A stretch of DNA of 64,000 nucleotides from Psammoneis japonica (taxonomy: Eukaryota). The translations under genes and the position numbers were made by a program. Location of the stretch: assembly GCA_008632985.1 (NCBI GenBank), contig QPGO01000072.1, forward strand, positions 248,001 through 312,000. Reading direction: 5' to 3'. The notes beneath the pieces were generated by a model that made no database searches, was not told where the DNA came from, and saw nothing but the letters and a program-made list of their open reading frames with translations. Positions 22,544 to 57,449 of the stretch are shown here, one piece after another (the stretch's first letter is position 1; each line of letters opens with the position of its first letter).

Positions 22544-23760
22544 CACAAATGTGTGTCTGTCGAAACCATTTGCAGCGAGAAATGATGACAAATCCCCCCG
22601 AACATTTCTTTTCTGTGCAATTGCATTGTGTTTCAATCGAGTCACACAAGGGTTTGTGATCGCGAGTTACGTCAGAGTTCTCATTTTTCCTTTTTTTGGA
22701 AGCAGACAAATGACGTCAGCATGGTGCATTGCTTGCTTGCTCTTTGCTGCAACAAGAAAAGGCACAATGTGCGCCATTGTGGGACATGCCAAACAATGAA
22801 TTGGAATTGACAAGAAATGCAGAAAGAGCACCGCATTGCCACGATCCAAACAAATCCTGCTGCACTCACCACATCTAAGAGCAGTGGCTGAGATGAGCTG
22901 GAGTGCACCCCACACCACCTCTCTGTCTGTTTGCACCTGGATTTGCTCCACAAAATGGTGCTGACCATCTGCAGACACTTCATCACACACCCAAGCTGGG
23001 AGTGCATGACACGTGAAAAACTCCCCTGTGGGGGATGAAAACCTCAAAGGGGCCCAGAGGCCAAGCAACCACCCAAGTGGTGGCTGGCCTGGTGGACCCA
23101 CCATCGTGAAGGTGGCGTGAGCTTTGGGCACCTCATCCTGGCACTCGGGCACTGCAAAAAACATGTTTTTGCACAGACTGCAGTGCTCTGCTTGCCTGTC
23201 AAAATCTTGGCAAAAGGGTTGCTCAAAAGCTCATCATGCTGCCCTCCATTGCCACCACCAGGCACGAGCATTTTTCCAGAGCTGTGGCCACTTTGTGCAT
23301 GACATCATGGCGGTCATTGGCTGCACTGTGGTTGCACCTCTTGTGCAAAACAGATCTGAGGATGGATGCATTTTTCACAATGCACACTTCACAGTTGCAT
23401 GGTGCACAACACAGCGGTGGAGTTGCTCTGTGGGACTTTGGATTTTCAACCTGTTTTGGGTGTTCTCACACTTGGGAGTGACAACTCCACTGCACAGTGG
23501 CGCTGTGTGCAGTGAGCCACACTTTTCTCACCAACTGTGGCTCTCACAGGTGCCAAAGCCTTCATGTTCCATTTCCACTGCCTTGTGGCTCACCTCATCC
23601 CCAACCTGCAAACTGGCCACAGCAACACACCCATTGTTTGGATGGGCGGGAGCGAACAATGTTGTGCCACAGCTTTGTCACTTGCTGCTGCTCCTGCATC
23701 ATTGCCAAGCACACTGCTGTCACAGGAGCTGGTGTCCTTCACCAACTCTGTTGCTCTCCA

Positions 23761-24038
23761 TGCAATGAAGGTGGTCTTCAATGCTGCCAACATCACAAGT
23801 GCAATTTTGATCTCTGTGCAGCAGTGAAAGAGCAGCATGGTTGTTCCTTGTGCCTGTGCCAACTCTGCTCTGTCTTGCAGACAGTCCACAAGAGGCTCCA
23901 CTTGCAATGAAGATCTCCAGCGTTGCCAACATCACAAGTGAAATTTTGATCTGTGCAGCAGTGACAGAGCATGGTCATTCTTTGTGCCTGTGCCAACTCT
24001 GCTCTGTCTCACAGACTGTCCACAAGAGACTCCACTTG
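23761..24038. repeat. Diverged tandem duplication, ~140-bp unit
   Basis: tgcaatgaag...tgccaacatcacaagtg...tgtgcctgtgccaactctgctctgtct...ctccacttg occurs at 23761-23902 and 23903-24038. Confidence 0.8.
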
Positions 24039-24299
24039 ACAGAGGATGGCTCAATGACAACAACAATGGAGGTGGGCACCTGAGCTGGAAAACAGCCAAA
24101 ATCAAAAGCCACATGGGTTCCACTGCAACATCTGTGTGGGCTTTCTGCTGCCTCACAATGTTTGACAGCACACCCAGCAACTCTCATCTAAAAAAGCAAA
24201 GCTCCAGCCCCGCAGCGCTGCAAGCCAAAATCAAGGAGTCAGCCAACAAGACCTGTCAGCACACTGTCTCTTGTTTTGTTGATTCTACCCAAACAGCTC

Positions 24300-27200
24300 A
24301 ATGACCTGACACAAAGGCGCTGAGCCATTGCTTCTTGATTGCCCCTTGTCACGCAACAGCAGCAATGACAAACCTCCTCAATGAGTGCAAAAATAAAGAG
24401 CAAGAAAGTTCCCCAACTCAAACTGTTGCTTGTCAACAACCCAAAGACAAACAAGCTTGTGTCTCCTTCCTCAAGAAAGAAGAGGGAGCAGGCAAAGATT
24501 GACAACAGCAAGAAAGTGTCCCAGCCACTTGTCTCTGCAATGTGCTTGAGGACAACAGCAAAAAAGCAACAATTGCAGCCTTTCTAATTGACTCCACTGA
24601 AAATTTTGATGGCACCAAGTGCTGCGCAACATTTCAAAATGAGCAAAGAACTTGAGGAAATCTTGACCGGGATCTGGCGACAAGACTTTCTGTTGCTCTT
24701 TGGGACTTTGCTGGCATTGTTGTGCAATTGAAAGCCCAAAAGCGCAGAGCATTGCCTTTCCAGCACATCACAGTCACAGAGTGTAAAATGTGGACAACTT
24801 TTGTTGCTTTTGCCATGGGATTCCTGCCTTTCAAATGCTGCCAGGTGTGTGTCTCTCATTTTTTCATCCAGCTGCACAGAATCCCCTCCTCCCAGCAGCC
24901 AAGCTTCTTCCCTCATGTTGCAATGACTTTCCATTGCTCCCATCCATTTTGTTTGGCCAACTCAGAAATTTGTCACATTGACTTTTGGGTTCACGTGGCT
25001 CAATGGTGGGAGGTGTCTGCAAGGAAATGCACAGTGCTCTGGGTGCCATTGACTGTTTGATTGGCAATGCACACATCACATGGGTTGACCTTGAACCCGA
25101 TTTTTTCTCCAAGTCCTTGCAAAATCACTTGCACCACAGCAGAGCTGTGACCAACATGCTGCAAACAGCTCCAGCAACTTCAACACACAGAGGACTCTTT
25201 TCCCCTTCTCCATGACCACATGGAGCCCACACAGGAGGCAGGTGGGGATCAATGCTTGCCAGTGCGGCAACCAACACACTCCTGCAATTTTCATCATGAT
25301 CTGGTCTTTGCCTTCCTGAGGCTCCAAAGTCAATGTCTGCACAAATGTGTTTGGCACATTGGCACTCATTGTGTTGTGCCCTTCCATGGCATCAATGATG
25401 GCTGTCTTTGTTGGTGTTCCTTCCAATGGTGCCATCAGGCCAGCTGATCATCCTTGTCCAGTCATTTTGCAGCTGGTTTTCAGCTGCAAACTGCGGCCCT
25501 TTTGTGCAGCTATCTTGCTTCTCCATCAGGAGCATCAAGGCAATCACAGCCTTGGTCCTCTGAGTCAGAGTCATGTCTTCAACTGACATTGGTGCAAAGC
25601 ACACCCTGTCATGGAGTTGTCCAACCTCCTTCTCTGAGATGTCATGCCCCCTCTGGACAAATGCTTTTGGGTCTTTGTGCAGCAAATGCTGCTGGACAAA
25701 GGAGGTGCTCTTTCCTGATTGGAGTCAGCTGTCAATCTTGCACATGATGAGTTGTGCACACCAGCACCATTGCTGCATCTGCGCTGCACTTGATGTCATC
25801 CTCTGGATTGGGCTCACATTCAGCTGCTTGCAAGTGGGCAACAGCACTCAAGTCTGTTCTGCTTGGGCTTTTCTTTTGTGTTGTCTGCCGCTCCTGAAAA
25901 TCAAACTTTCTTTTCTCTGTGTTCATGTGATTTGATATTGAATGATTTGCCAGTCCTGGTCACTCTGTGTGGGACATGAATTGTCCTCTGACTCTTTGTC
26001 ATCTCCATCTTCTTCTTTGACTTCTTGGCTCTTGTGCTGCTCATTGGAGCTGAGCCTTTCATCAGCAAGGACTTCATTTGTTTCTTCATGCTCATTGTCT
26101 GAGTTTGCTTCACAATCACAGTCTTCATCTTCTGACTTGGTCAGGCAGTTGGCACTGCTGGTGTGTTTGTTTTTGTTTTTGTTTTTTTTTTTCTTCACTT
26201 TTTTATTTGCTGTCACTTTCATCATTGTCCACTCTCCTGCAGTCCAGTCAGCACAATGCAGGTTGTCTCCACATTTGCCTGCAACTTAAATCTTTGACAC
26301 CTTGTGCTGTGGCCATCTTCTTGATTCTTGACTGCTCACATGTGTCAGTCAGGGGCATGGCAGTGCACTTGTGGAGATTGAGAAGCTTGCCCATGTTGTG
26401 CAGGTTCACAGCACAGGGGCCACCCTTGGGAATGTCAAAGCATGGTTGCAGATGCATGCTGTCAATGCTGTGCATGTCAATGGTGGTTGTTGGGTTGTTC
26501 TCAACATGAGACAGGACAAATTCACCAAATGCAAGCTCAAAGTGCGCTTGTTGTCACAGTCAAGGTTTTTTCATTGCACAACAGTGTGTGGACTGCACAT
26601 GTTGAAAATTCCTTCTTGGTGTGGTGCATGTTTGACATGACAACATTCTTTGTCATGGAATGCTCACACATCAACTTGGGCATCATCTTGCATGGCAGGT
26701 GGTGTGCAGTGTCTTGAGTTTGCTCTTTGATTGTCTCAATGCTCTTTTCAACTTCAGGAACATGGTTGCCAGTGTTTGCAGGCATCAGCTCTAAGTTCAT
26801 GCCATCGGCAACTTCTGCCAGCATGTCCTCAAACTTGGGGTCACACTTGACAAAGTCAATCTTGAATGAAGCCATGCTGAACTGATTGTTGGGGGGTTGT
26901 GTCTAGTGCATTGCATGCATTGACATGCTTTTTGGACCTCAGTCTCACACTCTCAATTGGCACTGAATCATCTTGTCTGTTGTGTGCAGTGTCCCAACTC
27001 TGCATGCTTCCACAACATCAATGCAGAGGATTGTGCCTTCTCTCTGCTTCTTGTGTGTGTGTGTGTCCGATGGGACAGCCACAATGTTGCTCCTCTCATG
27101 GGAGCAATGTGCACATTTGGTCTTGCCCTTCAGCAAGTCTGTTGGTTGGCCCCAAAATGCAACCATCCTGTCCACATCTTTGGGCACAATTGACAAGTTT

Positions 27201-28650
27201 TTAACCTGGTTTGAGGTGAAAACAGCTTGAAATTCCTCACACTGGGAACTCCAGCTTTGCAGCACAGTCTGAGTGCTCACCAAGTGCTTGCTGCCTTCCT
27301 CTTGGTGTGGCTTGTGGAACTCTGCTCCACTGTCAGAACCACAGCTCTGGATGCACTCCTGTGCTTCTTGTTGCTCTTCTTCTTTCATTTGCCAGCTGCA
27401 GCCCATGCCATGCAACACTCCTGCTTCAGCCACAGTGGGCCAATTGGTTGGATCTGGTGGTGCATTGATGCCAGTGTTGTCACCAACCACTGTCAAGTGG
27501 TCTCATTCCTGACTCACATCTGCCACATGCAGTGTCTTGTTGATGCTTGCAGTCTGGAGGCATGTGGCTCAGTTTGCTGCAACACAGTGACACACCACAG
27601 CATTGCTCTGGTCACTCTTGTGGGCATGGCTCTGGCTCTTTGTGTTGTTGTCGGACCAGTTGCTGCTGTTGTCATTGTTGCCACCACTGCCATTCTTGCC
27701 ATCTCTTTGCTCATCATTTTTCCTCCTGTGCCAGTTGCAAAGAGTGTCACCAAAAAAGAATCCTGCTGGACTTTCTGTGCTGCTCACTGCACTTGCCTTG
27801 GCAGTCTGTGATGGCTGTGGGTTGCCAAAGGTGTCAATGTAAACTGCAAACTTGTGCAATGACAGGTGCCTGCCAATGCTGAATGATGAATCATGCAAAC
27901 CAAATGATTCACTCCAAAGAGTGAAATGAAAAACAAAGGTGAGAGATTGACAATGGCAAAACTGGTGCAGCAATGAATCACCCAATGAGCCACCTTGTGA
28001 GTCATGAGTTGTGTGTCTCTGTTCTTCAACCCATCCGGGTTTTTCATGATCTCTGTTTGTGCTCTGGCTCCAACAGAATGACAACAAAATCAATGCTCAA
28101 CAAGCAGTCTGGATCATCCAGCACAGCAGCAACAGCAGCCAAGCCTTTTTACAAAACTGTGCCAGCAAGCAATGGGTTCACGAACCTTGCCATTTAATTT
28201 GGAAGATTGGAAAGTCGCTGGCTGTCTTTCCTTGCATGGAATTGCTGTCAAGCAGTCTTCAAGAACATTCCCTTTTGTCCTTTGGGGCAACATTGACAAA
28301 AACTGGCTGTCCAGCAAGGAGAATAGGAAATCTGTGAGCATTTGTTTTTCACTTTTCAATTTCCTTAACAGGCAATCAGCAAGACCTGGGCACCTTTCCA
28401 CCAATCAATGACAACCACCACTGGCACACCAAAAGAAGGCATCGAGATCAACTTCATTGGACAACACCACGTCCGCGCTGAACCACTGTCGGGACAACAC
28501 GGAGTGGAGCACAAACATGTGCTCTGTCTTGATCTTGTCTGCAGCATTCATGAGCCACAATGTCCAGGACCCCATTGCATCCTCGGCCAAAAAGACTTGT
28601 GTGGATTGTCAGATCGGCTCATGCGGGTTGTCTCCAGAAAAGAAACGTTT
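24300..28650 (-). mobile_element. Degenerate Ty1/Copia (diatom CoDi-like) retrotransposon
   Basis: Integrase-like ANTGNHVPEVEKSIETIKE (~26730-26790). RT-like KEVGQLHDR..F.P, LMLLMEKQD, AIIDAMEG..SANVPNTFVQT, GKRVLCV, PCDVCIAN. Gag-like segment at 27.5-28.3 kb. Many frameshifts; LTRs not resolved. Confidence 0.75.
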
Positions 28651-30805: not shown

Positions 30806-31391
30806 TGTCACGTCGTGCTCATGACCCGACACTTCGAGACGTCATAAAGAACAATAGAGAACTACGGACAGAACCTACACACATCTACGTGAACATACAT
30901 CAAGAGACACATGCATACTACATGAACAATTATCCAACATCTTCCTCCTAAGTAAACAACCGGACACATGCGGAAAGCGATAGTAAACAACTGGACACGT
31001 GTATCACTTCCTAAGTAAATCGAGAAGACATTTCTTAGCCGAACTTCAAGTTCCTTTTCAGCCAATCCGATTCTCACAAGAAAACGGTCGAAACGATGAA
31101 GAGCGAATCGGATCTCTCGATTTTTCCCGTGATACCTTCGGACACCATACGTGACCTCCTCAGAAGTCCCAAGACGTTCCCTTAGACGATATACACTTAA
31201 AGAAGAACCCAGGAACGTTCCTACATAACAAGAACAGAATTTCTCTGGAAAAGAAAGAATCGAAAGAACATTCCGCGAGATCACCGCTCCAGAAATTCAC
31301 TTCATAATTTTACACTTTTATAGTCTCACTTTTCATGAACGACTCTTAAAATCACCACAATCACCCACAATAGGCCTTGTGCCACATGACA
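30806..31391 (+). repeat. Gypsy 5' LTR (TpA-intact)
   Basis: Direct repeat of 36834-37419. Confidence 0.97.
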
Positions 31392-31423
31392 TTTTGATCA
31401 AACAGTGGCGTATCATTATAATA

Positions 31424-33085
31424 ATGCCGCCTCTCAGCATAGTACTGAGCATTCTACTTAAGGCGAAGAAAGCCTACGTACGTAGCCCCCAGTTCGACGG
31501 AACTGAAGAATAGTACTTTAGAGCGTTACCTCAAGATAATACTTATACAGTACAGGAGGACATGACTAGTCAAGCGATTGTGAAGTTATACAAGTCGTAC
31601 CCCCAAGTAGCGGACGACGTTGCGAGCCTAATCAAGTACAAGGTTGCGCCAGACCCGGGAGAACCGGAAGACACGGTGGCATTCTATATCCATCAGTGTG
31701 ATACCTCCATCAAGGAGAAGTACCTAGTCTTTTTAAAAGACTTTAATGAGCTAAGAACGGTCAAGCACTGGACAACAGGACCAGTACTTCATTGCCAGAT
31801 GTTATGCCTAACCAGAGGCTCCATCAAGGACCGATATCAGAGAGCGGTAAGAGCTCTAGTTGAAAATCCAGAAGAACTTACCCCTGAACAGTTTGATACA
31901 GCAGTAGAGACAGCCACTGCTGGACTGCTTCCTCGAGACTCAGCGGCAGTGCAGAAGCAGTACTTGCGCTCCATACGCAAGCCAAGAGAAACTACCTTCA
32001 TTGAATTCACCTCCAGAATTTCGGAAATCAATGAGCTAGTACCCTACATGAGAGGCTCTGCAGAAGAGAGAGCCCCTCTCACGGACCAAGAGTTAACTTA
32101 TGCAACAGAGCATGCTGTGCCGGATGATTGGCGAGAGAGATTCCAACTATCCGTCGGACACAGAGGTGAGTATGGTATGGCAGACTTGGAGACATACTAT
32201 TCCACCATTGAATCCTTCCTACAGAAGAAGAAGGCCCAACAAGAGAGAAGGTTGTCAAATAACCAACGGCGATTCCAGAGACGTATCCCCACTCACGGCT
32301 ACCGAACCGCATACGGACATGGAGGCGACCGAGCGACACGACCGAGCAATAATAACAATGACAACGCCGGAGCTCCTCCCAACCAACCACATAGATATCC
32401 CACTCGATACCAAGCCAACTTACAGCGTGATAGGAACCGTCCTCAAGGCTATGGTCAACGGAGAGGACGTACCCGAACGAATCGGCAAGAAATACGTGCC
32501 GTACACGAGCCAGAAGAAGCTCTACCAGTCCAGAACCCGGACAACAGTATAGACTCAGCCCCAGCTGAACAACTGGAACAACTCAGCATAAGAGATGATT
32601 CTGAACCTGAATCTTATGAACAAGAAGACGGACTTGAGATACCAGAAGACGATACGAGCTACTCTTATGAAGAATCAGACGGAGAATATGATACTTACGT
32701 GGAAGAGAACTATTGCGTTCTGTTGCCAGAAGACTTTGAGCTGCAACAGAGACAGAGACCTCCCATGGACCCAGCAGAAACAACTGATGCATCCAGCATG
32801 CCGGAATTTGTGCCGCACAGCGGATCAACATCGTCAGACAGCGATGATTTGTGGAGTACCGCTAGTAGTATGTCAACAGTATCGTCGACAACCTTGTCTA
32901 TGGACGAGCTGTCATCTTTTGGAGAAGATGCCGATGACGAGTATGAGGCTACAGCAGACAGCGCGGATGAGTGCGCATCTCTGACATCATCAATTTTCGA
33001 GCATGACAACAGCACGGACGCCCAGGAGTTGATAGAAGCATTATATCCAGATGGAATGGACGATTGCGACTACGTAGGGCCCTAG
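31424..33085 (+). CDS. Gypsy gag with acidic C-terminal region (in-frame TAG at 31511)
   Basis: ORF 31562-33085 with QKQYLRSIRKPR..FTSRISEINELVPY..AVPDDWRERF. The upstream in-frame ATG at 31424 is followed by a premature stop. Confidence 0.75.
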
Positions 33086-36000
33086 TGTTCCCTCATGGGG
33101 GCATATATCCTACGAGAAGGAACTTATGTGTTCCAGGTGACCCAGACGAATTCGAAGAAGAAGAAGGACATTCGAAAACGTCCGAAGACACCGAACCCTA
33201 CATATATGAGCAATGTCGCTCACTTTCTCATCGAGCAACTGCCTCGAAGACGAAGCGAGCTGTATCGGCAGACGAACTCATGAATAGCGAGTCCGATAAG
33301 AAAATGTCACCGGCTCCAGAGTCCGATACCGATGAAGAGAGTATCTATATGACGAATGAACTTATGCCAGCCGTGGCGCCTGAGCCACAACCAGCAGCAC
33401 GAATGCCTGAACCAGACCCTCAGAGTGATGGTTACGAGCATTTGAGTGCATCCAGTGATCATGATTTCTTTTACTGTGAACCTGGCACAGTGCACCTAGA
33501 TGATGAAGAGCATCGTACTTGGTTCCACCAAGAAGAAGAAGTCTTTGGAGATGGCATGTCTGACCATCTCAGAGAACAAGAAGAGGAGCAAAGCAACAAC
33601 AAGAAGCCGAGAAGACACGCAGCACGAAAGCCTCAAAAATGTGAGTGGAAGAACCCCGGATGCATCGTGCGACTTCAACTACTCGATCCAGTTGATGGGA
33701 CTCAAGACAAAAGCAACAATGTTCTGCTCGCCTTGCTCGACAGCGGTGGCAGTCGAACAATGACAAAGAGAGATGTGCTCTCAAAAGAAGCACTGGATGA
33801 GGCTGCCTTGGCACCAACAAGATGGGAGACCTTGTTTGCGCAGACCCATCAGACAACTCATGTCGCACTCACTCGTTGTTGATTCCTTGACACATCCTCA
33901 CACAGACAATTCGATTTATGCTTTTACATTTCATCATTGCAAGGAATCTATGATGCTGTTGTAGGACGAGATGTTCTGTTCAAGCTTGGAATGAAGCTTG
34001 ATTTCCAGGAAAAAGTCATTGCTTGGGATGACTTGTCCTTTCCGATGAGACATCCCGAGGATTTTTGGCACCGACCGACGACGCAAGAAGAGCTCATGGC
34101 GGCTCGTAAGGCCAAAGCCATTCGCCCAAATGACTGTAGTCCCACAGAGGACTTGCAAGAGTGTGTGCCCGAGCACTCATCGAGAGAGCAAGGTGAAGCT
34201 CTTGTTGCTTTGCCAGAAGACTTCTCCAGTCTCACGCAAGGAGAGCTCGGACAATGTGCCAAGCAACCACCGGTCAACATTGAGCTTAAGCCCGGCACCG
34301 AGCCCATTGTGTGCCGACCTTGCAGCATGCCCCAGATCAACTGCAACATGGCAAAAGGAGAAGCAGAGAGATTGTGCCGAGCAGGAGTTCTGAGAAGGAT
34401 CTCAGACTCAGCTTGGGGATTTCCCTCAATGTTCACACCGAAGAAAGGTGGTGATTGCCGATTTGTCACCGACTTTCGGCTGTTAAATCAACGCATGCAA
34501 CGACGCCCATGGCCTCCACCTTTGACACCAACCATGCTCTGAAAGCTGCATGGCTGTGCTTGTGTTGCAGCGATCGATTTGAATGTGGGATTTTTTACGA
34601 TGCGGATCAGCCAGAAGAGTCAGCAGTGTCTGACTGCTGTGCTGCCGTTCGGCAAACATGCTTGTTGCATGTTGCCAATGGGACTTGCACCAGCCCCAGA
34701 TGTGTTCCAAGAAGTCATGACTGACTTGCTGGGACACTTGGAATTCGTTCTGATTTTTATCGACGACTTGTTGATCATTGGCAAGGGATCCTTTGATGAT
34801 CACCTCGCCCAATTGCGCGAAGCATTTGTGCTTTTGAATGATGCAGGCTTTAGAGCAAACTTGCGAAAAACTTTCTTTTGCGCTCTAGAAACGGAGCACC
34901 TGGGGTTTGTCATTGCTAGAAACGGAATCAAACCGCAACCCAAGAAAGTCAATGCGATTGTGAATTTAGTTTCGCCCAAAACAAAGAAAGAACTCAGAGG
35001 TTTCATTGGAATGATGAACTTCTGTCGCGAGATGTGGCGACTTCGTGCCCATCTGTTGGCACCTCTTTCCAGTGTGACCTCGAAAGCGGTCAAGTTCGAG
35101 TGGAAACCCGAACACGAGCAAGCGTTTCAAGAAATTAAGAGACGGATCTCTACCGAGACGCTTCTTGCCTGCCCTGATTTCAATGAGATGTTCTACATCT
35201 ACACCGATGCTTCGAAATGCCAGCTGGGAAGCGTTGTCATTCAAGACAAGTGCCCGACAGCATTCCACTCCCGCAAACTCTCCGACACGCAAAAAAGACA
35301 TCCAGTTGTCGAACAAGAACCACTGTCGACAGTTATGACGCTACGAGAGTGTCGTGACATCCCATTGGGTCATAGGATCACGATCTGTGCGGATCACAAG
35401 AATCTGACCTTTGCAAATTTCAAGTCAGACCGCGTGTGTCGTTGGCGACTGATCGTTGAGGAATTTGGTCCCACGATTCTTTACCTGCCGGGAGCAAAAA
35501 ATGTGCTCGCGGATTTCTTATCACGTGCCGCGACCACGACTAGCGACCCAGAGACACCAGCTGCAGATCCAACGCTGGAAGAGTGTTTCGCCTTTGAATG
35601 CGACGATGACACTCATTGTCCTATCTCGTTTGACACGATTGTTGAAGCACAGCAAGATGATGCTACGTGCAAAAAAGCATTGCAACTTGCTCGAACCGAC
35701 CCGAGTCGGAAAGAATTGTCTGACTACAGTTGCATGGTGCAGGATGGACACCTGCGCCTGGTCCTTTTTAAGGACAAGATTGTTGTCCCTACAACTTTAC
35801 AAGCACCTCCATTGAACTGGTGTCATGTCAATTTACGCCATCCAGGTATCCAACGAATGGAAAAGACCCTCAGGCAGTGCTGTTGTTGGCAAGGTTTGAC
35901 CCGAGACGTCAAGACCAAGGCAGACCAATGCCAGACCTGTCTACAGTCAAAAGAGAACCGCAGAGTGTATGGAAAAACACCTCTTAAGGACATGCGAGCC

Positions 36001-36810
36001 CTTGAGATCGACCCCTGGTTGCAGGCAGCAGTCGACACTGTCGGACCGATTACCTTTGCTGCTGGCACCGGCATCAACCAACGAAGTTTGACGTTAACCG
36101 CCCTCACGATGGCAGATCTAGCTACTCATCATTTTGGCATGGAGCAGATCTCCACAGTCTCAGCTCTGGAAGCTGCCAGAGCATTTGACCAAGCGTGGTC
36201 ATGCAAATTTCCGCGCCCAGTCTGTTGCACACACGACAACGGTGCGGAATTTACAGGTGTTGAATTTCAAGAACTGCCAGTTTCTTATGGGATTAAGTCT
36301 AAACCTGTGACAGTGCGGAACCCACAGGCGAATTCACTGCTTGAACGGACCCACGATGTTTCATGGAGCTGCATGCGGGCCCAACAAGTCGATGATCCCG
36401 ATGCATTTAATCAACCGAATCCATGGAATACGACAACAGCCTCAGCAACTTGGGCGATAAATTCGACGGCACATGCCATCATGCAAGCCTCTGCCGGCCA
36501 ACTAGCTTTTGGAAGAGATGTGATCCTTCCCTTGCAATGCAACGTCCACTGGCCGACCATTTGTGCTCGCCGCCGACAACAAGCGCAAGCAGATGACGTG
36601 CGTAAAAACTCTCGGCGACTCGACCATGACTTCAAAGTGGGAGACCTTGTTTCTCTCCGAAACGACAACCCTCGTCGATCCAAACTCGCCTTACGCCGAC
36701 TTGGCCCATGCGAGACACATGAAGTGAAGTCCAATGGCACCGTCATCATCCAAAAAGGAAATTACCTTGAGACCGTCAATGCGCGGCATCTCGTTCCTTT
36801 CTCTCCCTGA
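33064..36810 (+). pseudogene. Gypsy pol (protease, RT, RNase H, integrase); frameshifted and Tyr->Cys/His mutated
   Basis: ALLDSGGS, WGFP..PKKGG..RFVTDFR, LPMG, FIDD, TDAS, SRKL, DHKNL, NVLADFLSR, H-PG..C..C, HDNGAEF, NPQANSLLE. Confidence 0.93.
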
Positions 36811-36833
36811 TGCGATTCATTGGAGGAGGCGCG

Positions 36834-37419
36834 TGTCACGTCGTGCTCATGACCTGACACTTCGAGACGTCACAAAGAACAACAGAGAACTGCGGACAGA
36901 ACCTGCACACATCTACGTGAACATGCATCAAGAGACACATGCACACCACATGAACAATTGTCCAACATCTTCCTCCTAAGTAAACAACCGGACACATGCG
37001 GAAAGCGACAGCAAACAACTGGACACGTGTGTCACTTCCCAAGTAAATCGAGAAGACATTTCTTAGCCGAACTTCAAGTTCCTTTTCAGCCAATCCGATT
37101 CTCACAAGAAAACGGTCGAAACGATGAAGAGCGAATCGGATCTCTCGATTTTTCCCGTGATGCCTTCGGACACCATACGTGACCTCCTCAGAAGTCCCAA
37201 GACGTTCCCTCAGACGACACACACTTAAAGAAGAACCCAGGAACGTTCCTACATGACGAGAACAGAATTTCTCTGGAAAAGAAAGAATCGAAAGAACATT
37301 CCGCGAGATCACCGCTCCAGAAATTCACTTCATAATTTTACACTTTTATGGTCTCACTTTTCATGAACGACTCTTAAAATCACCACAATCACCCACAACA
37401 GGCCTTGTGCCACATGACA
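36834..37419 (+). repeat. Gypsy 3' LTR (TpA-eroded)
   Basis: Direct repeat of 30806-31391 with 21 substitutions (manual count). Confidence 0.97.
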
Positions 37420-37949
37420 AGCTTGCGTGTTGTGACCCATGGCACACACTTCAACCAATCAAAAAGAACAAAATCAGCATCAAGATGACCAAGAATGGCT
37501 GGCAGGCAACTTTTGCACAACTTGTTGAATCGCTTGCAGACGAGTGCAATGGTGCAGTGAAGGCTTTCTGCTTCAGGAAGAGTCAGGAGTGCATCAACAG
37601 AATCTGGGCTGCGGATTTTCACGCCTAAACCATCACTCTCTTCTGAAGGAGCAGACACTGTGGGCTCACCAGCACCAAGAAACGACAGAGTGTGAACCAA
37701 ACAGCAATCTTTAAGGTCCGAAATTGACAGCTTTTGTGGAGTTGCGATTTGCCTCCACGCATTGTTGCGCCACTTTACTTTCTCTTCTGAGTCGTCCTCT
37801 CCTCCAACTGCTGCAGTTGCCCAGCCTCCATGATTCACCCGTTTGCTTGCAACATGGGCAATCTGTTCATTGTAAACCCGCTTCTTGCCTTTGCCCCGTA
37901 AGAGAATCACGGGCGCCGATTTCTGAGAATGCGAGCTGTGCACCTTCAT
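37420..37949 (-). pseudogene. 5' part of the F-box/LRR-like gene (F-box motif), TpA-depleted
   Basis: LSISDLKDCCLVHTLSFLG...IALVCKRFNKLC. Continues in frame into 30805. Start codon uncertain. Confidence 0.7.
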
Positions 37950-38120
37950 CACATTCTCTTTGACGCGCCCACCTGTTCTTCTGTGCTTTTGTTTTTGAGC
38001 TTCTCTGGCCAATCCAGACCTTTCACAACATGTGTGGAGCCGCGCTTGAACAGATGAGAGAGTGTTCGAGAGGATGACAGCCAACAATCGGTGTCAACAC
38101 AGCCTCCGCTCTCCGCTGCG

Positions 38121-41100
38121 AGTTGACGTCTGTCAATCCACCTGTCGACTGCGCGCAATCACGCGCATCTGTTTTCAAATTCCGCCATCAAAACTCTGCT
38201 CGATGTTGCAGTCATAATTTTCAGTCAACGACTTTTGCAACAACAACAGCTGCTAGTTTACAACCTTGAGCATCAGCTCTTTCGACATCTGCAGTCAGTC
38301 ATCTCAAGCCGTCGATCGTCCATTTCAAATGGAATCGCCGTTCATCGATTCGACAGACCTCTCCAGTCTGTCGACGATGACACCACGTGCAGCTGAGCCT
38401 CCCTCCTTTGTCGACAGGCTCGTACGCATTTTCCCGCCACTGGAACCAATCCATGGAGCTGGAATCATCATCGTCAAGCGTCGTCATTTTCGGCCGTTGC
38501 GACACCAAACCCGGGCTGAGTCGTTTCGAACTCTCCAAGTCCATGCCAAGTCAAGACCTGCCTCTCACGCTGTTCGACGACGACACTCTCGTTGCCGATT
38601 GATTGTTGAGCTTCTGTGGCAGTCTCCCAATGATGCTGCATCGAGAGCTTCATTTTGCCGTTTGTGCCCCAAACTCCGCGCAGCTTCAGCACCAAGTTCT
38701 GCGCATTGACTCAAATCCACCATGGCCGGAACGCCGTCAAAGACTCCGTCCAAGACCCCCAAGGGCACCAAGACTCTGCAACAGAGGAGTCAGACTCCTC
38801 AACCTTCTCGAACCAGCAATGGGACACCTGCTGCTCCCGCTGGCAAGAACAGCAGTTCCACCACAGGAGCCAATCAACCTCCGCCTCCTCCAAGGTGTGG
38901 AGGGATCCATCCAGAATGTGGGTGATGCATGGGTGGTTCTCCGTTGGATGACGACTGCAAGCCCAAGCCACCTCGTTCCTGCCGCTCAACCAACCAGTCT
39001 CACGACAAGAAGATTCTGCTGCACATCGAACGTGCTCTTCACGAAGCTTGAGACGGAACACTCGTCGTCAAGCTTGACGGAAACCTCGAGCTCACTGACA
39101 TGACCTCCAACGAGCTCGACCAATCCCACTTCGTTCAAGCTATCCGCACCCTTGTCAAGGAGCATGGCTTGGAGAACTTCTTCGCTGTGAAGCTCGAGAA
39201 GAAGGTTGTGTCACCATTCGACCATCTCCACTCTTTTGCGGTCGACGAGGTGATTGCCGAGTGCCTTCATCACGCCAACGTCGCCAAGGACTTCACTGCC
39301 TGTGACGATTGCGAGCACAACGATGTCGCCCTCTCCCGATTGGTTGTTGAGTCTAGAATCTCACACCGATTCCACGAGAAGATCAAGGTCCAATTCGGAC
39401 ATGACGATCTCTTTGAGTGCCACCCCGGTCAAGTCTGTTTGATGATGGCTTTGGATGCTTGCAATGCATCTGCCGTGCATGACGTTGCCCAAGCCACCGA
39501 GGACCTCGATGCTCCATTGCTTGCATCCCACCCGGGTGAGGACGTGACTGAGTTCGCTGCCGAAGCTCTCCGTCTCACCAAGCTGCTCCAAGCCGGGTGT
39601 GCATCACCTGTCGACCTCGGGTCGAGCATTCTCAAGAAGTGCCAAAAGACCTCATGTGAGGCACTCAATCGCAAGATTTACACCAAGTTGGACAAGGTGT
39701 CGACCATGGAACACAAGCATCACCTTGGCGATCCCAAGGCGATCACCGCGGACTCCGACTGTGATGAACTCGGGCCCACAGCGTGCACCTCCTTTTTGCA
39801 GAAGGAGCATCGCTTCTGCGTCACCGACAAGGATTGGCCCAGACTTTCCACCAAGCTCCCTCAGAGCAACAACGCTTCCAAGACCAGAAAAGGGGCCTGC
39901 AATGCATGTGGTGCTCCGGACCACTGGGCCAACGATCCCAAGTGTCCCAAGTGTGCCGAACATCAGAAGCACAAGAAAGAGAAACGTGAGCAGCGTCGAC
40001 AGAACAGTCGCAAGGACAACCCAACGGCACCACCTGCCACTGCACCGCCTCCTGCGTCTTCCGTTACGGTCGACACTGTCCCTGCTGACAAACAAGCCAA
40101 ACTCAAGGAGTTGCTCACCAACGAGCCCCATCGTCACACCCGTCCGGCGGCCCTGTCCAAACCCGTCGTGAACAAGTGCGGTTCGACCACGCATTTTTGT
40201 GGAAAGTGCACTTGCAAGCACACCGGCATTCGGGGGATGTACACGAATCACAAGGAGTCAGATCATGTTCGCAAACCACCGAAACAAGAACCACCTGCGG
40301 CCAATCTTACCTCCATTGACGACCCAGATTCGGGCGTCCCACCTGGGCCACCCGCTCAGACTGCTGCAGACCCAACCAATGCGCCCGAGCCCTCTCCTGA
40401 TGAGGATGAGCTTGTTTGGACTGGATTCCATTGTTGTGTGGTCAAGGACTCGTCTCCTCCCACCCCGTCTGTCGCACGAGTCTCCTGCAAACCCGCTTCC
40501 GCGTCTCAGAGGGAGCGCCTGCCGGTTGCAGTCGAGACCGTCGAACCTGAAGATGCTGACGACTTCAGCGATCACTTCGATGCATGTGACGATCTCTCTT
40601 GGGACGATTCCATTGTTGTGTTTCCACCCACGACTGCTCCTTCATCCAGTGTCCCTGCTTCGGGCACTCCGGCTCCTGCGGCAGAGTTCTTCTTCGATGC
40701 CGAGTCCGGACCCGAACCCGTGCCGGATCCACCGGTTCCCCAAGCTCACCATCTGTTGCTGTGGGATCTCCTCAAGCTCCCGCTCTTTTGGATCTCTGCA
40801 ATGCTTTGGGAAGGTCTCCTGTGGCTCGTCTGCTCCCAGGATGATCCCCCCCCTCCTCCCCGCCGTGAACGTCGCCTCAAGCACCGCCCTGCGCTGTGTC
40901 GCTGCCCCTGTCGTTGGGGCGTGATTGCGTGCGCTGTTGCGCTTTGGCATTTTGTGTGCGGCGGCGCTGTCCCTCCCCACCCCTTTCAATCATTGGACCG
41001 CCTCTCTTCTCAAACATATGAAGTTGTCTCTGCTCTCGATGAGCGCGTCGATCTGTCGCCCGGTGCGTTCGTCCAGTGCCATGCTGTCAAGGTCAGACAA

Positions 41101-44100
41101 TTCAAATGTGAGTTGGCGCGCTCAGAGGGAGACAAGCAAGACAAAAGCCACTCTGCCTTTTGAACTTTCTGAGTTGATTGACAGGAGTGACAATGACGAT
41201 TTCTTTGATGCGTGCACGGAGCTCCCCGTCCATGCGGAGCACTTCTTCGATGCTGATGCCTTCTGCGAGTCTGACTGCTCGAGCCCGGATGTCTTCGGCA
41301 TTGCTGACTTGTGTCACGCCCGCCACTTTGTCGACTGTGCCAATGCTCCGGAGCTCGCTACGGAGGATCCATCGGCTTCACCAGCTTTGCCGACCTCCGC
41401 TGCACTTCGTGCCATTTCCGGGGAGACCCAACTTTCGCGTCTCGCCGCTGATCCCCAGGCCCTCTTCCACATCAGACCAAGTGATCTCCAGGTTGTTTTT
41501 GACACTGGTGCCTCGCAGGCCATCACTCCTGACAAGAAAGATTTTGATGGTCCGATCAAGTGCTGCCGGACCCCGCTCCGCCTCGGCAGCATGGCTGAAG
41601 GCATGTGCATCACTGGTGAGGGCACCGTCACGTGGACCTTTCAAGCCAGAGAGGGTCACGAAATTGCTGTCCAGCTCCGCACCTTTCTCGTCCCGTCCTC
41701 CAAGGTTCGCCCACTTTCTCCACAACGTCTCTTCCATGCAGACGGTGTCAAAGGACATTTTTGGGGTGACAGTGAGATTTTCAAGGTTTGTTTTGCAGAC
41801 ACGCCGGAGTCAACGCTCGAGTGCGACGAGCGCTCCCACTCACCGGTTGGCTGCACGACTCTCGGTTCCATCCATGCAACACAAGTCAATTTGAGCGCCA
41901 TCAGCGACCCGGATGACCTCAATCTGTCTGCTGGACAGAAGCTTCTCAATGAATGGCATCATGCGCGCTTTGGGCACTTAAATTTTCCCAATATCCAAGC
42001 TCCACTCTGCGGCCATCCGTTCGAGGCCATGAAATTCAAGGCAGCATCCAAATGCGACATTCCAAAATGCGGTGCATGCGAACATGCCAAGGCTCATCGC
42101 CGTTCTTTGAAGTCTGCCATTCACAAATCCGACCCCAAGCACGATGGAGCGTTGAAGGCTGACCATCTCAATCCCGGCCAGTCCGTCAGCGTCGACCATT
42201 TCGAATCGCGTCTCAAGGGCCGTGCCTGTGATTCATGCGGCAAACCGTCCTCCCAGCAGCATGTTGGCGGCTGCATCTTTGTCGACCACTCCTCTGGTCA
42301 CATCCACGTTGAACACCAAGTCGGTTTCTCCGCTGTCGAGACTGTTCAAGCGAAACAGGCATGTGAGACCATGGCAATGGGACACGGCGTGATCGTCCAA
42401 ACTTGCCTCACCGACGGTGGCGCTTTCAAGGCCAACCAGTTCGTTTCCCACATCCATGACTCCCAGCAACGCATGCACTTTTGTGGCACCAACACTCATC
42501 ATCAAAATGGTGTTGCCGAACGCTCCATTTGGTCCACATCCAATGTGGCTCGCACCATGATCCTCCATGCTTCGATTCACTGGTGTGGCGGCATCGACAG
42601 CTCTCTGTGGCCCATGGCAGTGCACTGTGCTGCCCACATCTACAACGCCACTCCCGGCACTCATGGTCTGTGTCCCGCCAACATCTTTGCTGGCTCCACC
42701 GTCCCACGCCACTGCCTCCGCAATCTCCATGTTTGGGGTTGTCCCGTCTGCGTCTTGGATCCCAAATTACAGGAGGGCAAGAAACTTCCCCATTGGCAGC
42801 CGCGTTCTCGGCGTGGTGTCTTTCTTGGACTCAGCAACATTCATGCCAGTGAGGTGCCGTTGGTCCTCAATCTCAATGCTGGCTCCATCACTCCCCAGTG
42901 CCACATCATGTTTGACAATCTCTTCACCACGGTTGCTTCGATCGCGAGGGAGAGCGAACCGCCAGATCACTGGGAAGAATTGTGGTTGGAGAACACCACT
43001 CAAATTCCCTTGGACTTGACCGATGGACCGTTGTTCCTTCAAGACGACTGGCTCACTCCTGCTGAACTTGAACAGAAACGACGACATGAGACTGGGAAAC
43101 GCAATGTTCGCGCTGCACGTCAACAGCAGCAGAACTTGCCAAAACCCACTGAGAAACCAAAACCCACAGGGGATCCTTTGCCATCTCCAAATCCACCACC
43201 GTCTGCACCATCGACACCAACAACTGCAGTTGATCCATCACCGACACCACCGCCACAAACACTGTCGCTTCAAAACCCATCATCGCCGACGCCTCCAGTT
43301 GACGATCCTCCACCTTCAGTCGCACGTCCACCGTCTGCTGCTGGCAATGGTCCGGGCACGTCAGTCCCATCCACGACTGCTCCAGTCCCACCTGAACCCT
43401 CATCCACGACTGAGACACCAGGGGTGCGCCGATCCCAACGGTCGAACAAGGGTACGCGCACAACTGCTCGTTTCGCCGACGAAGTGCACCTGGCTTCTGT
43501 TGTCCCTGACGATGTTGGAGGACAACAGGCTCAGCTTGCCCATTTGGCTGAGATCCAGACTGACTGTGATTTGGGTGTTTTGGATGTTCAGGCCCGCGGA
43601 TCTACGCCGCCAAGGTCAAACGCGATGCGGATGATCCGAACATTCGCGAGGCTCTCTCGGGTGATTTTGCCAAGCAACACATTGAAGCCATGAAGACGGA
43701 GGCATCTGCTCTTGTCCATCGTAAAACGTGGCAATTTGTGAAACAGGAGAAGTCAATGAATGTGCTCAAGTCCATGTGGGCATTCAAGTTGAAACGATTG
43801 CTGGATGGCACGCCGCTCAAGTTCAAAGCGCGATTTTGTGTCCGAGGAGATCTGCAAAAAGAGGGAGTTGACTGCTTCGAGACCTGCGCTCCAGTGGTCC
43901 AATGGTCGACCATCTGTCTCGCATTGAGTGCTGTCCTGCAAGAAGGATGGACCACCCATCAGGTCGATTGCACCAACGCTTTTGCGCAGGCCGAGATGAC
44001 GGAAGACGTTTGTGTCGAACCACCCAAGTGTTTCGCTCCCAGTTCAGGATCCAATGTTGTCTTGAAGCTGCTCAAGAGTCTCTGCAGTCTCAAGCAAGCT

Positions 44101-45470
44101 CCCAAGTGCTTCTTTGATGAGCTGCGTGAAGGATCATTGGAACGAGGATGGACCCAGTCGCAAGTCGACCCGTGCCCATTTTTCAAGGACGGTGTGATTT
44201 GTGTGGTCTGTGTTGATGACACCATCCTCGCTGGCAAGAATGGAGCCGCTCTAGAAAGTGAGATCAAGGCTCCAGGCATCCAAGACGATGAACAACGCCA
44301 TGCATTCGAGTTGCGAAACAAGGGAGAAGTTGGCGACTTCCTCGGTGTCAAGATTTTGCAAAACCGGACCCAAGGAATTCTTCCTTGCCCAGCCTGGACT
44401 TGTTGACAAGGCCCTCAAGACAGCTGGCATGGAAGATCGCCGCTCTTCTCCCACTCCCAGTGCTGCCTCTCCATGTCATGCGGATGAAGAGGGAGCCGAA
44501 TTCGACGAGAACTGGGACTGCCGTTCCGTCATCAGCATGTTGATGTGTCTGTCATCATCCAACTCCCGACCTGATGTCTGCTGTGCCACGCATCAAGCCG
44601 CCCGCTTCTCACATGCTCCCAAGCATTCTCGTGCGATTGCGGTGAAGCGCATTCTACGATGCTTGCAAGGCACCAAGGACAAGGGACTCTGTCTGTGCCC
44701 TGGCGACAACGAACGTGTTGATTGTTTCGTTGACGCCGACTTCGCCGGCCTCTGCGGTCACGAAGACACTCAAGATCCGGTCAGCGTCAAGTCCCGCACC
44801 GGACATGTCATCTTGTGTCGTGATTGTCCCATTTTATGGGTTTCCAAGCTACAGACGCAAGTGGCACTCTCCACTGTGGAGGCCGAGTGCCTTGCTCTGT
44901 CGGCTGCGATGTGCGACCTGACTCCGATTCGTGAAATTTTGAAGGAATTCAAGTGCCATGTTTTCGGTCTCATGGATTACAAGACCCCTGCCACCACCAA
45001 GTCCAAGGCCTTTTCAGATGTAAAGGATGGTGCGATCCCTTCTTCAGCAGTTTATGAAGACAATCAGGCATGCCTCAAGTTTGCGAAAATGGCCAAGTTG
45101 TCTCCACGTGCCAAACACATTGGCGTTCCCTGTCATTGGTTCCGCGCCAAGGTCGAGGCTCTTGAGATCCGGATTGAGCCTGTGGGAACTGATTCCCAGT
45201 TAGCTGATCAATTTGCGAAGGGACTTATTGCTGACAAGTTTGAATCTGGTCGGTTGAGTCTCTCAGGCTGGCAGCTCTACGGTTGAGAGGGAGAGTTGAC
45301 GTCTGTCAATCTACCTGTCGACTGCGCGCAATCGCGCGCTTCAATTTTCAAATTCCGCCATCAAAACTCTGCTCGACATTGCAGTCACAATTTTCAGTCA
45401 ACGACTTTTGCAACAACAACAGCTACTAGTTTACAACCTTGAGCATCAGCTCTTTCGATATCTACAGTTA
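38121..45470 (+). mobile_element. Full-length Ty1/Copia LTR retrotransposon (~7.35 kb)
   Basis: 177-bp LTRs at 38121-38297 and 45294-45470, PPT GAGAGGGAG, domain order gag-PR-IN-RT-RH. TSD not clean (TGCG vs TACA). Confidence 0.95.
38329..45286 (+). pseudogene. Copia gag-pol polyprotein, frameshifted, with Tyr almost entirely replaced by Cys/His
   Basis: CNACGAPDHW zinc knuckle, VFDTGAS, HARFGH..CGACEHAK, SVDHF, HHQNGVAER, KFKARFCVRGDLQ, LKQAP, VVCVDD, FVDADFAG, STVEAEC, YEDN, ADQFAKGL. Confidence 0.93.
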
Positions 45471-45921
45471 TACATCGGCACAACAAGTCTGCGTTCCGTT
45501 TTGTTTCTGCGATCTGGGATCGGCGAGTGTGTGTGAAGTTTTTGTGAGTTTGGAGTTTGAAATTTCGGATTTTCTTTGGTTTTGGCAACTCCAGCGAAAA
45601 AACGAAATTTCACCAAATTTTGTTAAAAGAGCAAAAAAGAGCAGAAAAAAGATGAATAGGATCCCTACGACTGAAACAAGAGCCCGGATATTTCTTTTTA
45701 CTGTAGAGTTGCCAGTTGCCATGCAAACAGTTGCGTACATGTTGTAGAAATCCTTGTGTTGTAGTTTGTTCTTTTCTCTTCAGTTGTTGTATTACATAAT
45801 ACATTATCATCCTACGCAGAAGCTCATATAGGACCAGAGAGCGCGGCTTGGCTCCATCCCACGTTAGCACCAGTAAAAATAACTAGCTAGGAGCACTTTA
45901 TAGAATGGGCCCAGAGTCAAG

Positions 45922-46701
45922 CTATGGTCCTCCGGTGCCGGCGTTTCCACTGCTGCCGGCACTACTGCGTCTCTCGTCAATGAAGTCGACGAATCTATAA
46001 AGGGCAACCATCAACAGAGCCAACTTCTCCGCCTCACCATTCACGCCATCAAGATCAACCACAGCCGTAAATCCCCCATCGGCATTTTCAGCCTTGATAC
46101 CCATCGCAATGGAATGCAGTGCATGTCCATTCTGATCCGTAACAGGAATCTCCCACCCCGTACGGTCCAGCTTACGAGTTAGACAGCACGGACCGATTCC
46201 CAGCGTGGGGAAGCAAAGGAGCATAATGCAGCAGCAGAAGGCGTATTCGTTCATCCAGCCAAAGGCTCTTCTTGGTCCAAGCTGGAAGTTCGTGCTGGAG
46301 TTTCCGACTACGTCAATACTCGGCCGGGATCCTTTGTTGCGGATGGACGCAATGGGCTGTCCTCCTGTTGCGGTTGAAACAATGGCAATCTCCTTCTGTC
46401 TGAACTTGTCGCGATGGTACGACACAACAACCGCTTCGGTAGAGGAAGGAGAAGGAGTCGACGTAACGGCAACGTCGAGATCTCCCTTGTAAATATCCTT
46501 GCAGATGATATCGACGGATCCGAGGAGGAGGTTGGCATTGCCATTGGTTGAACCAGCTCCTTCCTTTTGGCAGATCGTGAGAGTACCGCGGAAGCCACCG
46601 CCTCCGAGGAGGCCTCGTCCTTGAGATTTCCAAGTCTCGGGATTGTACGAGATCTCAATTTTGGTGGCATCCCGAGGGATGATCGATAGTTCAGCCGACA
46701 T
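45922..46701 (-). CDS. Hypothetical protein (259 aa) with a Cys-rich hydrophobic segment
   Basis: Single ATG-initiated ORF with normal composition; AFCCCIMLLCFPTLGIGPCC. Confidence 0.65.
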   Translation of the reverse strand: MSAELSIIPRDATKIEISYNPETWKSQGRGLLGGGGFRGTLTICQKEGAGSTNGNANLLLGSVDIICKDIYKGDLDVAVTSTPSPSSTEAVVVSYHRDKFRQKEIAIVSTATGGQPIASIRNKGSRPSIDVVGNSSTNFQLGPRRAFGWMNEYAFCCCIMLLCFPTLGIGPCCLTRKLDRTGWEIPVTDQNGHALHSIAMGIKAENADGGFTAVVDLDGVNGEAEKLALLMVALYRFVDFIDERRSSAGSSGNAGTGGP

Positions 46702-47072
46702 TGTTTACGGCGTAATTTACTACTCTAGGTTTTTTGTGATCACGGTGTCGGATTCAGCGAGGAGCAGGCAGGAGTGGTTGCTTGAAAGATTTTCGAATTG
46801 CCGTTTTCGAGTTGTCTTCCCAACCGTTCCAAAACCCGCCCGGCCGATCCAGATCGCTCGCCTCGCTCGAAAAGCGCAATGACCAGCAGCGCACGCACCC
46901 AGACCGTAAAACCAAAACGAGCCATGATGATGGGCCGCGCACGTCCTCGCACCGAGACAATGCGGAAGTTCAATGTTGTTTTATCCACCAGGATGATTGA
47001 TTCACGAGCTTCTCGACTACTCTCTTTGATCTTATCACGAACTTGTGATCATACTACAGCTTTTTCACAAGC

Positions 47073-56900: not shown

Positions 56901-57449
56901 TGACTGGCAGCCATGTTTTGTGCAGTTGCCCACACATTGGACATGGCGCCAATTGTCTCTGTGGTTTGGCTTTGATTGGCTGATCTGGCCACCACATTTT
57001 TGTCTCTCAACCACACACTGTGCTGTGGATCCAGAGAGTCTCCACAAGCCAGTGATTGTGCATTGTGCATGATGCCTGCATTGTCTCATTGACTCTGACA
57101 CACATCCTCATTGGAGCCCAAGCATTGCAGCCAGGTTGTTCTGTTGGTTTTTGGACTGGGGTGATTGTCCTGCCACCTCAGAAGCATCTTTGATCACATG
57201 GAACCTGGATTCATTGCACAAGTCCACCAATTCTGGAGGCTGCAGCTTTGGTCTTGTCTCATTGTTTCTGATCTCTTGCATCAGAACACAAGCCCAGCCA
57301 CCATCTGTGTGGCCTGCTGGCATTCCTCCTCTTGCTCTGTGCCTGTCATCAAAATCGGCCCCAGCACTGTGTCTTCATTTTGCCCATGATTGCAGTTGCC
57401 ACATTTTGCACTCACATTGAGCACATGTTTGTGATTGCATCTCCTCTTT

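Follow-up and report, generated by a model that had tools for sequence, protein, structure and literature searches.

Context-specific C>T hypermutation is well studied as a defence: repeat-induced point mutation (RIP) serves in fungi and APOBEC in animals. A process that converts A:T to G:C, and at TpA only, has been reported once before, in a 2026 preprint on a chlorarachniophyte alga, Bigelowiella natans (Mettrop et al., bioRxiv 10.64898/2026.01.13.699255). Here we analyse 64,000 nucleotides of the diatom Psammoneis japonica (GenBank assembly GCA_008632985.1, contig QPGO01000072.1, positions 248,001 to 312,000, forward strand), hereafter the window. Two retrotransposons with long terminal repeats (LTRs), one Gypsy-type and one Copia-type, lie partly or wholly in a TpA-depleted domain of this window. 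We consider it likely that integrated mobile DNA in the diatom nucleus undergoes domain-targeted, TpA-specific A:T>G:C hypermutation.

The B. natans preprint describes TpA-specific hypermutation of integrated viral DNA. In mutation-accumulation lines followed by Illumina sequencing, 231 of 302 new mutations fell in two integrated viral regions; all but one of those were A>G or T>C, all such changes lay at TpA, and the rate was about 1000 times background. Clusters of the genome that are poor in TpA and rich in CpA and TpG show an enrichment of reverse-transcriptase and DDE domains. An ADAT2-like adenine deaminase is the authors' candidate, still unproven; neither diatoms nor CpG are mentioned in the text. 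Our literature search, which covered few subscription journals, turned up no account of TpA-specific mutation in any diatom. The B. natans preprint is the only matching phenomenon it returned, and we read the diatom as a second lineage.

The two LTRs of the Gypsy element differ at 21 sites over 586 bp. At 19 of them the 5' LTR has TA and the 3' LTR either CA (11) or TG (8); the remaining two are CpG-type, there is no other kind of difference, and none has the TA direction reversed. The TA count is 31 in the 5' LTR and 12 in the 3' LTR. TpA sites have thus changed about 0.95 times each and other sites about 0.002 times, a 250-500 fold ratio that is good to an order of magnitude at most, its background being just two differences. 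Since the two LTRs of an element are made from a single template when it integrates, their differences postdate that event: the change from TA to TG or CA arose after integration, in DNA. The Copia LTRs (186 aligned columns, 15 differences) have TA only in the LTR at the domain edge at seven sites and the reverse at one; at one site, one LTR reads TG and the other CA.

The process is specific to TpA and has both strand outcomes. They occur together within one element, as the earlier note on this DNA had claimed from the sequence: in coding sense, A>G and T>C stand at 20:6 in Copia and 16:12 in Gypsy, and the Copia excess is partly expected, since most T>C changes at the third position of a codon are silent and under-counted by such a protein-based test. 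Conversion of both letters was not seen: Arg (CGY) is found at none of the 39 conserved tyrosine columns described below, and CG at none of the 21 Gypsy LTR differences, which is consistent with a process whose single hit abolishes its own target. Processive action on one strand was considered and dropped: along the Gypsy LTR, TG and CA form 11 runs against about 10.3 expected (hand count), with no clustering.

Editing before integration, by an ADAR-like or other deaminase acting on RNA or cDNA, would be another source of such letters, as would gene conversion or recombination of the Gypsy 3' part from a mutated copy. ADAR enzymes favour a 5' U, and many diverged copies of both families exist; both facts speak for this explanation. 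The ADAR preference is also stated in the Discussion of the B. natans preprint (bioRxiv 10.64898/2026.01.13.699255). The earlier note had argued against RNA editing from the two strand outcomes, and the argument is now stronger: LTRs of one element, made from one template, differ at 19 TpA sites in a single direction, and the spacer DNA beside the element is depleted as well. Together, the LTR differences and the depleted spacer show that an edited RNA or cDNA intermediate was not the main cause. The TpA specificity is, moreover, far tighter than that of ADAR hyper-editing. As for gene conversion, a contig from a public sequencing run of the same species joins 30801 directly to 37420 with six shared letters. 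This empty-site allele makes the Gypsy element an insertion polymorphism, and its joint fits a simple insertion; the allele and the window disagree at 25 of 490 spacer letters and at 5 of 732 to the left of Gypsy. Altogether, RNA editing is largely refuted, and we hold any pre-integration or gene-conversion origin to be very unlikely.

The post-integration change has the shape of a DNA domain. The ratio of observed to expected (o/e) TpA is 0.07 over Copia (38120-45000) and 0.40 in the last 476 bp of the element, against 0.53-0.62 in the flanks; for CpG it is 0.82-0.93 across both elements and flanks (0.86 in the domain, block C) and 0.60 in the spacer. The border near 33500 is abrupt, from 24 TA to 6 TA between 500-bp bins. 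The depleted domain covers the whole of Copia, the spacer and just the 3' ~4 kb of Gypsy: the process appears to track a chromosomal domain and to disregard both the borders of elements and repeat identity. The extent of the domain had been put at 34579-45286 in the earlier note, which is too narrow: it spans about 33500-45000, and three further blocks exist. The mutated regions are discrete, four sharp blocks within 64 kb. The Gypsy 5' half is no less repetitive than the remainder (contig depth sums to 530-920, where single-copy DNA has about 57) and untouched; repeat status alone therefore fails to explain the targeting. The spacer bin has a depth of 147 against 57, so that the copy number of the spacer is uncertain.

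Pyrimidine-purine steps are alike inside and outside the blocks, about 118-130 per 500 bp (three bins, summed by hand), a constant total that fits transitions only, at TA and CG. By the genetic code, TA>TG/CA lets TAA become only TGA or CAA, and TAG only TGG or CAG, and creates no new stop in any frame, as had been argued before. The removal of TAA and TAG accounts for the excess of long open reading frames (ORFs): the 14 kb of 33000-47000 hold 81 ORFs of at least 80 codons, long and overlapping in six frames.

Table 1. Features of the window and replaced tyrosine codons. Positions are those of the window; Tyr counts are those of the aligned relatives.
Feature	Position	Strand	Details
Gypsy-type LTR retrotransposon	30806-37419	+	LTR pair; Pfam RVT_1, RT_RNaseH, Integrase_H2C2, rve
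Gypsy LTRs	30806-31391 (5') and 36834-37419 (3')		586 bp each
Gypsy gag-like ORF	31514-33085	+	
Gypsy pol frame	33007-36810	+	in-frame TGA at 33880 and 34540
Gypsy 5' part, outside the mutated domain	30806-33499		TpA o/e 0.83
Gypsy 3' part, inside the domain, partly converted	33500-37419		TpA o/e 0.26, CpG o/e 0.87
Spacer between Gypsy and Copia, also depleted	37420-38119 (700 bp)		5 TA, o/e 0.11
Copia-type LTR retrotransposon	38120-45476	+	LTR pair; Pfam RVT_2, SH3_retrovirus
Copia LTRs	38120-38303 and 45293-45476		
Copia gag	38842-41097	+	
Copia pol, three frames (two frameshifts)	41126-43588, 43594-44358, 44360-45283	+	tblastn with five relatives
Block A	7501-10500		TpA and CpG nearly absent; TG, CA o/e ~1.8-2.0
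Block B	20001-28200		TpA nearly absent, flat near 0; holds the DUF7640 ORF
DUF7640 ORF (4e-15), Cys-rich diatom domain	21899-22666	-	in block B
Block C, TpA-depleted domain	~33500-45000		near-complete 38500-44500; CpG near normal; o/e in 500-bp bins
Block D	54500-63000		TpA and CpG both nearly absent
Patatin-type host ORF	10979-12811		69-79% identical to diatom proteins
Gypsy codon CAT	34657		Tyr in 90/107
Gypsy codon TGT	34663		Tyr in 104/107
Gypsy codon TGT	35023		Tyr in 114/119
Gypsy codon CAT	35299		Tyr in 120/120
Copia codon TGC	43885		Tyr in 95/96
Copia codon TGC	44083		Tyr in 96/96
Copia codon TGT, catalytic YVDD Tyr	44209		Tyr in 95/95
Copia codon TGC	44888		Tyr in 87/87
Codon CAC, weaker case	35266		Tyr in 97/119
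Codon TGC, weaker case	35170		Tyr in 82/119
Codon TGC, weaker case	43873		Tyr 50, Phe 45 of 96
Cys of DASKCQLG, weaker case			Tyr in just 32/119
Cys of ICADHKNL, weaker case			His 56, Tyr 44 of 120
Second Cys of GKHACC			column not Tyr

The pol proteins carry the same mark. We aligned Gypsy pol with 120 relatives (32-47% identity) and Copia pol with 96 (50-63%), and called conserved those columns with Tyr in at least 70% of relatives, or at least 90% for a stricter set. Copia pol keeps Tyr at 1 of 17 conserved columns and has 10 Cys, 3 His, 2 Phe and 1 Ala at the others; Gypsy pol keeps it at 4 of 22, with 5 Cys, 4 His, 8 Phe and 1 Ile. In the stricter set none is kept, out of 10 columns in Copia (9 Cys, 1 His) and 11 in Gypsy. 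Other conserved residues are retained at 319 of 371 columns in Copia and 252 of 343 in Gypsy; compared with these, the loss of Tyr has a Fisher p of 2e-12 and 3e-7, respectively. A host gene of the same window, taken as control, keeps 8 of its 10 conserved Tyr and shows no Cys or His.

The conversion of conserved Tyr to Cys and His, the central claim of the earlier note, is borne out by these counts. All eleven motifs quoted there lie where they were placed, and the strong Cys/His positions fall on columns that are 84-100% Tyr among relatives; for three of the quoted Cys, the column is weakly Tyr or not Tyr at all (Table 1). Relatives with Cys or His at these columns had been named as the finding that would overturn the claim. 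Such residues occur at 0, 1 or 2 of the 17 Copia columns in 69, 24 and 3 of the 96 sequences, and at 0 to 4 of the 22 Gypsy columns in 69, 44, 5, 1 and 1 of the 120; none of the 216 protein relatives shows the signature, and the claim stands against this refutation.

Eight of the 22 Gypsy columns hold Phe (TTY; at 34591, 34594, 34756, 34906, 35020, 36208, 36631 and 36799). A change from Tyr to Phe requires an A>T transversion, of which the Gypsy LTR pair shows none, and Phe is a minority residue among relatives at seven of the eight. Phe at these columns could be a trait of the lineage, or it could hint at a family that gets rid of its TA targets.

Mismatches at conserved columns of all kinds point the same way. 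In Copia (68 mismatches), 26 are single TpA>TpG/CpA steps, 11 CpG>TpG, 5 other transitions, 13 transversions and 13 multi-step, so that TpA steps make up 26 of 42 single transitions, the CpG type being next. In Gypsy (109 mismatches) there are 28 TpA steps, or 28 of 41 single transitions, with 13 other transitions, 28 transversions and 40 multi-step changes; this last class is the largest, and transversions equal TpA steps in number. Changes of Leu to Pro or Ser, Ile to Thr or Val, Thr to Ala and Val to Ala are present, each explicable by one TA>TG/CA step; three of these kinds (Leu to Pro, Ile to Thr, Val to Ala) had already been assigned to the same rule. Judged from their sequences, the Copia and Gypsy proteins are functionally damaged, the catalytic Tyr of YVDD being Cys, in agreement with what had been proposed.

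When all Cys are changed to Tyr, the profile score rises for the Copia reverse transcriptase (RT; +9.8), the Copia RNase H (+20.0) and Gypsy pol (+28.9), and falls by 7.6 for the Copia integrase part. Reversion in silico, which the earlier note had proposed as a check, is addressed by this blunt substitution and raises the score of three of four segments. Among relatives the same replacement lowers the score in 96 of 96 and 120 of 120 sequences, the best cases being -24.8 and -21.2. The Tyr columns, the LTR differences and this test all support a direction of change from TA to TG/CA, the one the earlier note had read from the sequence.

A reading with no directed loss of TA would have these elements belong to TA-poor lineages that use Cys and His, or would have the TA-rich parts altered by a RIP-like C>T change at CpA. 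Fungal RIP does yield TA versus CA/TG differences between repeats, and diatoms reportedly have a DNMT4 related to the RIP enzyme. The relatives, however, carry Tyr at these columns. The TA-bearing parts have a host-like TpA o/e (0.83, against 0.42-0.86 in 78 related Copia loci from metagenomes, whose lowest 1-kb window is at 0.26) and long open frames, and hence escaped RIP. The Copia copy, with its YVDD Tyr lost and two frameshifts, is dead and not selected for composition. The Tyr-column and LTR results rule out a RIP-like gain of TA, and this whole class of explanation is hardly credible.

Directed loss does not strike all TA equally. Relative to host density, surviving TA (blocks A-D, 33500-38119) reaches 0.48 in TTAA and 0.18 in GTAA/TTAC, while ATAC, ATAT, GTAC and ATAG survive at just 0-0.05. 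The partly converted Gypsy part has the same order of survival by flank. In the Gypsy LTR pair, TTA or TAA is found at 9 of the 12 sites that escaped conversion and at 6 of the 19 that did not (hand count). We take this uneven survival, as far as sequence can tell, to reflect a preference of the process for certain flanks.

Blocks A, B and D have 0-3 TA per 500 bp, CpG is nearly gone from them, and TG and CA each stand at about 1.8-2.0 times expectation. Along block B, CpG declines from about 20 to 1 per 500 bp. Of 66 ORFs in the three blocks (9 of them in block A and 29 in block D, all without a Pfam match), only the DUF7640 ORF matches Pfam. This ORF has no Tyr among 256 residues, against a mean of 3.4% in 31 relatives, and the TpA process may have hit a host-type gene copy too. 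Searched by tblastn with 12 relatives, the window gave no match outside 31000-45400, so that no similarity of the three blocks to the two elements was detected, and a search in a purine/pyrimidine alphabet found repeats only within blocks. One of these is a direct repeat in block A, whose copies (8480-8596 and 10146-10262) match in that alphabet and share 79% base identity over 70 nt.

The Gypsy element is young, with two non-TpA LTR differences and an empty-site allele, and partly converted; Copia is older, with about 2% non-TpA LTR divergence and two frameshifts, and is ~93% TpA-depleted with little CpG lost. The graded series from Gypsy through Copia to blocks A, B and D implies that TpA is lost quickly and CpG slowly. 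Blocks A, B and D, without either step, would then be older targets, in which TpA disappeared rapidly and CpG followed at a slower pace, most likely because methylated cytosine was deaminated.

The two elements are arranged head to tail. Gypsy has the Ty3/Gypsy layout, its LTR pair enclosing RT, then RNase H, then integrase. Copia has the Ty1/Copia layout, with an LTR pair and integrase ahead of RT (RVT_2) and RNase H; its integrase region aligns to full-length relatives at 44-49% identity. At the Copia frameshift sites (43592 and 44354-44356), other copies in the public run have an extra A or one T fewer, so both frameshifts are private to this copy; the second sits in a run of four T. The TGA at 33880 of Gypsy pol reads CGA in 11 of 11 contigs of other copies, and is thus CpG decay.

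Elsewhere in the window, the patatin-type ORF has its best named matches in Nitzschia inconspicua, Cylindrotheca closterium and Seminavis robusta, and the neighbouring ORFs code for ordinary host proteins; the window reads as nuclear DNA of a raphid pennate diatom. A dinoflagellate host was considered and rejected: a search of the window for spliced-leader motifs returned no match, and the host proteins point to diatoms. Just outside block D, at 63183-63682, is an inverted repeat whose 213-nt arms are 96% complementary and separated by 74 nt. Two short spots (501-1000 and 16001-17000) are rich in TA, with 45-58 per 500 bp against about 20 in host DNA.

Mechanistically, the hypermutation would consist of an A:T to G:C change at the palindromic TpA, giving TpG or CpA at a rate orders of magnitude above background. 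Chemically, an enzyme would most likely deaminate adenine to inosine on one or the other strand of TpA, the reaction also suggested for B. natans. The domain may be a silenced chromatin island around Copia, from which the process would have spread into the younger, polymorphic Gypsy. Its role could be genome defence, killing mobile elements without stop codons.

The same domain-limited process could rest on another chemistry, in which the thymine of TpA is modified or oxidised (5-hydroxymethyl- or 5-formyluracil type) by an enzyme and pairs with G at replication, giving T>C on either strand. Thymine-modifying enzymes exist in other protists, and oxidised thymine mispairs. TpA being palindromic, the LTR, Tyr-column and mismatch data fit T>C as well as A>G. 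On the other side stands the B. natans preprint, which proposes adenine deamination instead, also without proof. We regard thymine chemistry as unlikely, and adenine deamination as the better candidate.

A further explanation is technical: a basecaller or polisher would have written TG or CA for modified TA, and likewise for methylated CG in the older blocks. Modified motifs do give systematic long-read consensus errors, and the blocks resemble silenced DNA. Public sequencing data bear on this. Of sampled 31-letter words from 36501-46500, 48%, 2% and 0% occur in three public runs of one sample, and no RNA data set is listed with them. From one public run (single-copy depth about 57), 1872 contigs were aligned, a sample in which rare variants drop out; they show transitions at 896 places against transversions at 122, and so many diverged copies of both families. 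An artefact of symmetric modification should yield CG as well as unchanged TA, yet no CG was seen at the 39 Tyr columns or the 21 Gypsy LTR differences, and conversion exceeds 90%. The Gypsy 5' half is equally repetitive and untouched, and the Copia block has lost its TpA with CpG near normal. The 48% share of words is above the ~37% possible if the true copies held TA at host density (a rough estimate), and in B. natans the same signature arises de novo in Illumina data. A technical origin is therefore improbable, more so than thymine chemistry.

Several points weigh against domain-targeted hypermutation as we describe it. The TG and CA letters of the window are those of the assembly only, and at 15 of the 40 best-supported differing places the window has TG or CA where all contigs have CG. 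Both facts also speak for a sequencing artefact; these 15 places fit private CpG decay of this copy and would also fit miscalled methylated CpG. TpA depletion was found in 0 of the 78 related metagenome loci, many of which are CpG-poor (0.03-0.6), and is therefore no general feature of diatoms; of the two patterns used in that search, one included Tyr and was biased against mutated copies. The evidence spans one 64-kb window; sequence does not tell adenine deamination from thymine modification at a palindromic step; and the sparing of the repeated Gypsy 5' half removes repeat status alone as an explanation of the targeting.

With the same signature in a rhizarian alga, an ancient system common to the SAR group (stramenopiles, alveolates and Rhizaria) would follow. 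There, a chromatin-guided defence would have an enzyme edit duplex TpA from A:T to G:C on either strand in silenced islands, at hundreds of times the background rate, as an unrecognised counterpart of fungal RIP; TTAA and TTAC/GTAA would resist, and every Tyr codon and every TAA or TAG stop of the elements would be erased. We put this forward tentatively, as a serious possibility that falls slightly short of even chances.

If true, the process is not a curiosity of one species. What the diatom adds is the proof of post-integration action by LTR pairs, the domain behaviour, the saturation, the flank preference and the later CpG loss; a candidate enzyme would have to reproduce that preference. 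In blocks without TAA and TAG, gene finders over-call long false ORFs in six frames, and repeat finders and domain searches would miss decayed elements. In such genomes, ages of elements taken from LTR divergence would be off by orders of magnitude. A natural editor of A:T to G:C in duplex DNA would, if true, interest genome engineers.

Among known systems, B. natans is alike in several respects. Only TpA is affected, with TpG and CpA as products; the changes are confined to discrete foreign or mobile regions, at hundreds to a thousand times the background rate; and the long-term footprint is poor in TpA, rich in CpA and TpG, and associated with reverse-transcriptase domains. The differences are in host, a diatom (stramenopile) and not a chlorarachniophyte (Rhizaria), and in targets, here LTR retrotransposons and adjacent spacer DNA. 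The diatom is near saturation, with an o/e of 0.07 against 0.45 reported for the B. natans giant-virus insert. Its changes are dated after integration by LTR pairs, and its older blocks have also lost CpG. B. natans has real-time mutation data, whereas the diatom rate is an estimate from an LTR pair only.

ADAR and APOBEC likewise inactivate retroelements through deaminase-type transitions, and ADAR favours A after U. They act before integration, on RNA or cDNA, with one strand outcome and LTRs left alike; as editors of the intermediate they were rejected here, given both outcomes, LTRs that differ at 19 TpA sites and the inclusion of non-element DNA. Decay of methylated CpG resembles the diatom process in that a palindromic pyrimidine-purine step is lost to TG/CA in silent repeats, and deamination of methylated cytosine probably removed CpG from blocks A, B and D; it also occurs in many of the 78 related Copia loci. 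CpG decay leaves TpA alone, however, whereas block C has lost TpA and keeps CpG at 0.86: TpA loss is therefore a separate, much faster process.

Fungal RIP shares with the diatom the context-specific transitions across mobile elements after their entry, and the spill into adjacent DNA. RIP makes C>T at CpA, creating TpA and stops, whereas the diatom process destroys TpA and makes no stops; RIP depends on duplication, whereas in the diatom one repeated half of Gypsy escapes and a spacer of uncertain copy number is affected. Membership of the RIP family was rejected on direction and context, the change being from TA to TG/CA and TpA falling to 0.07. The diatom process works like a mirror image of fungal RIP.

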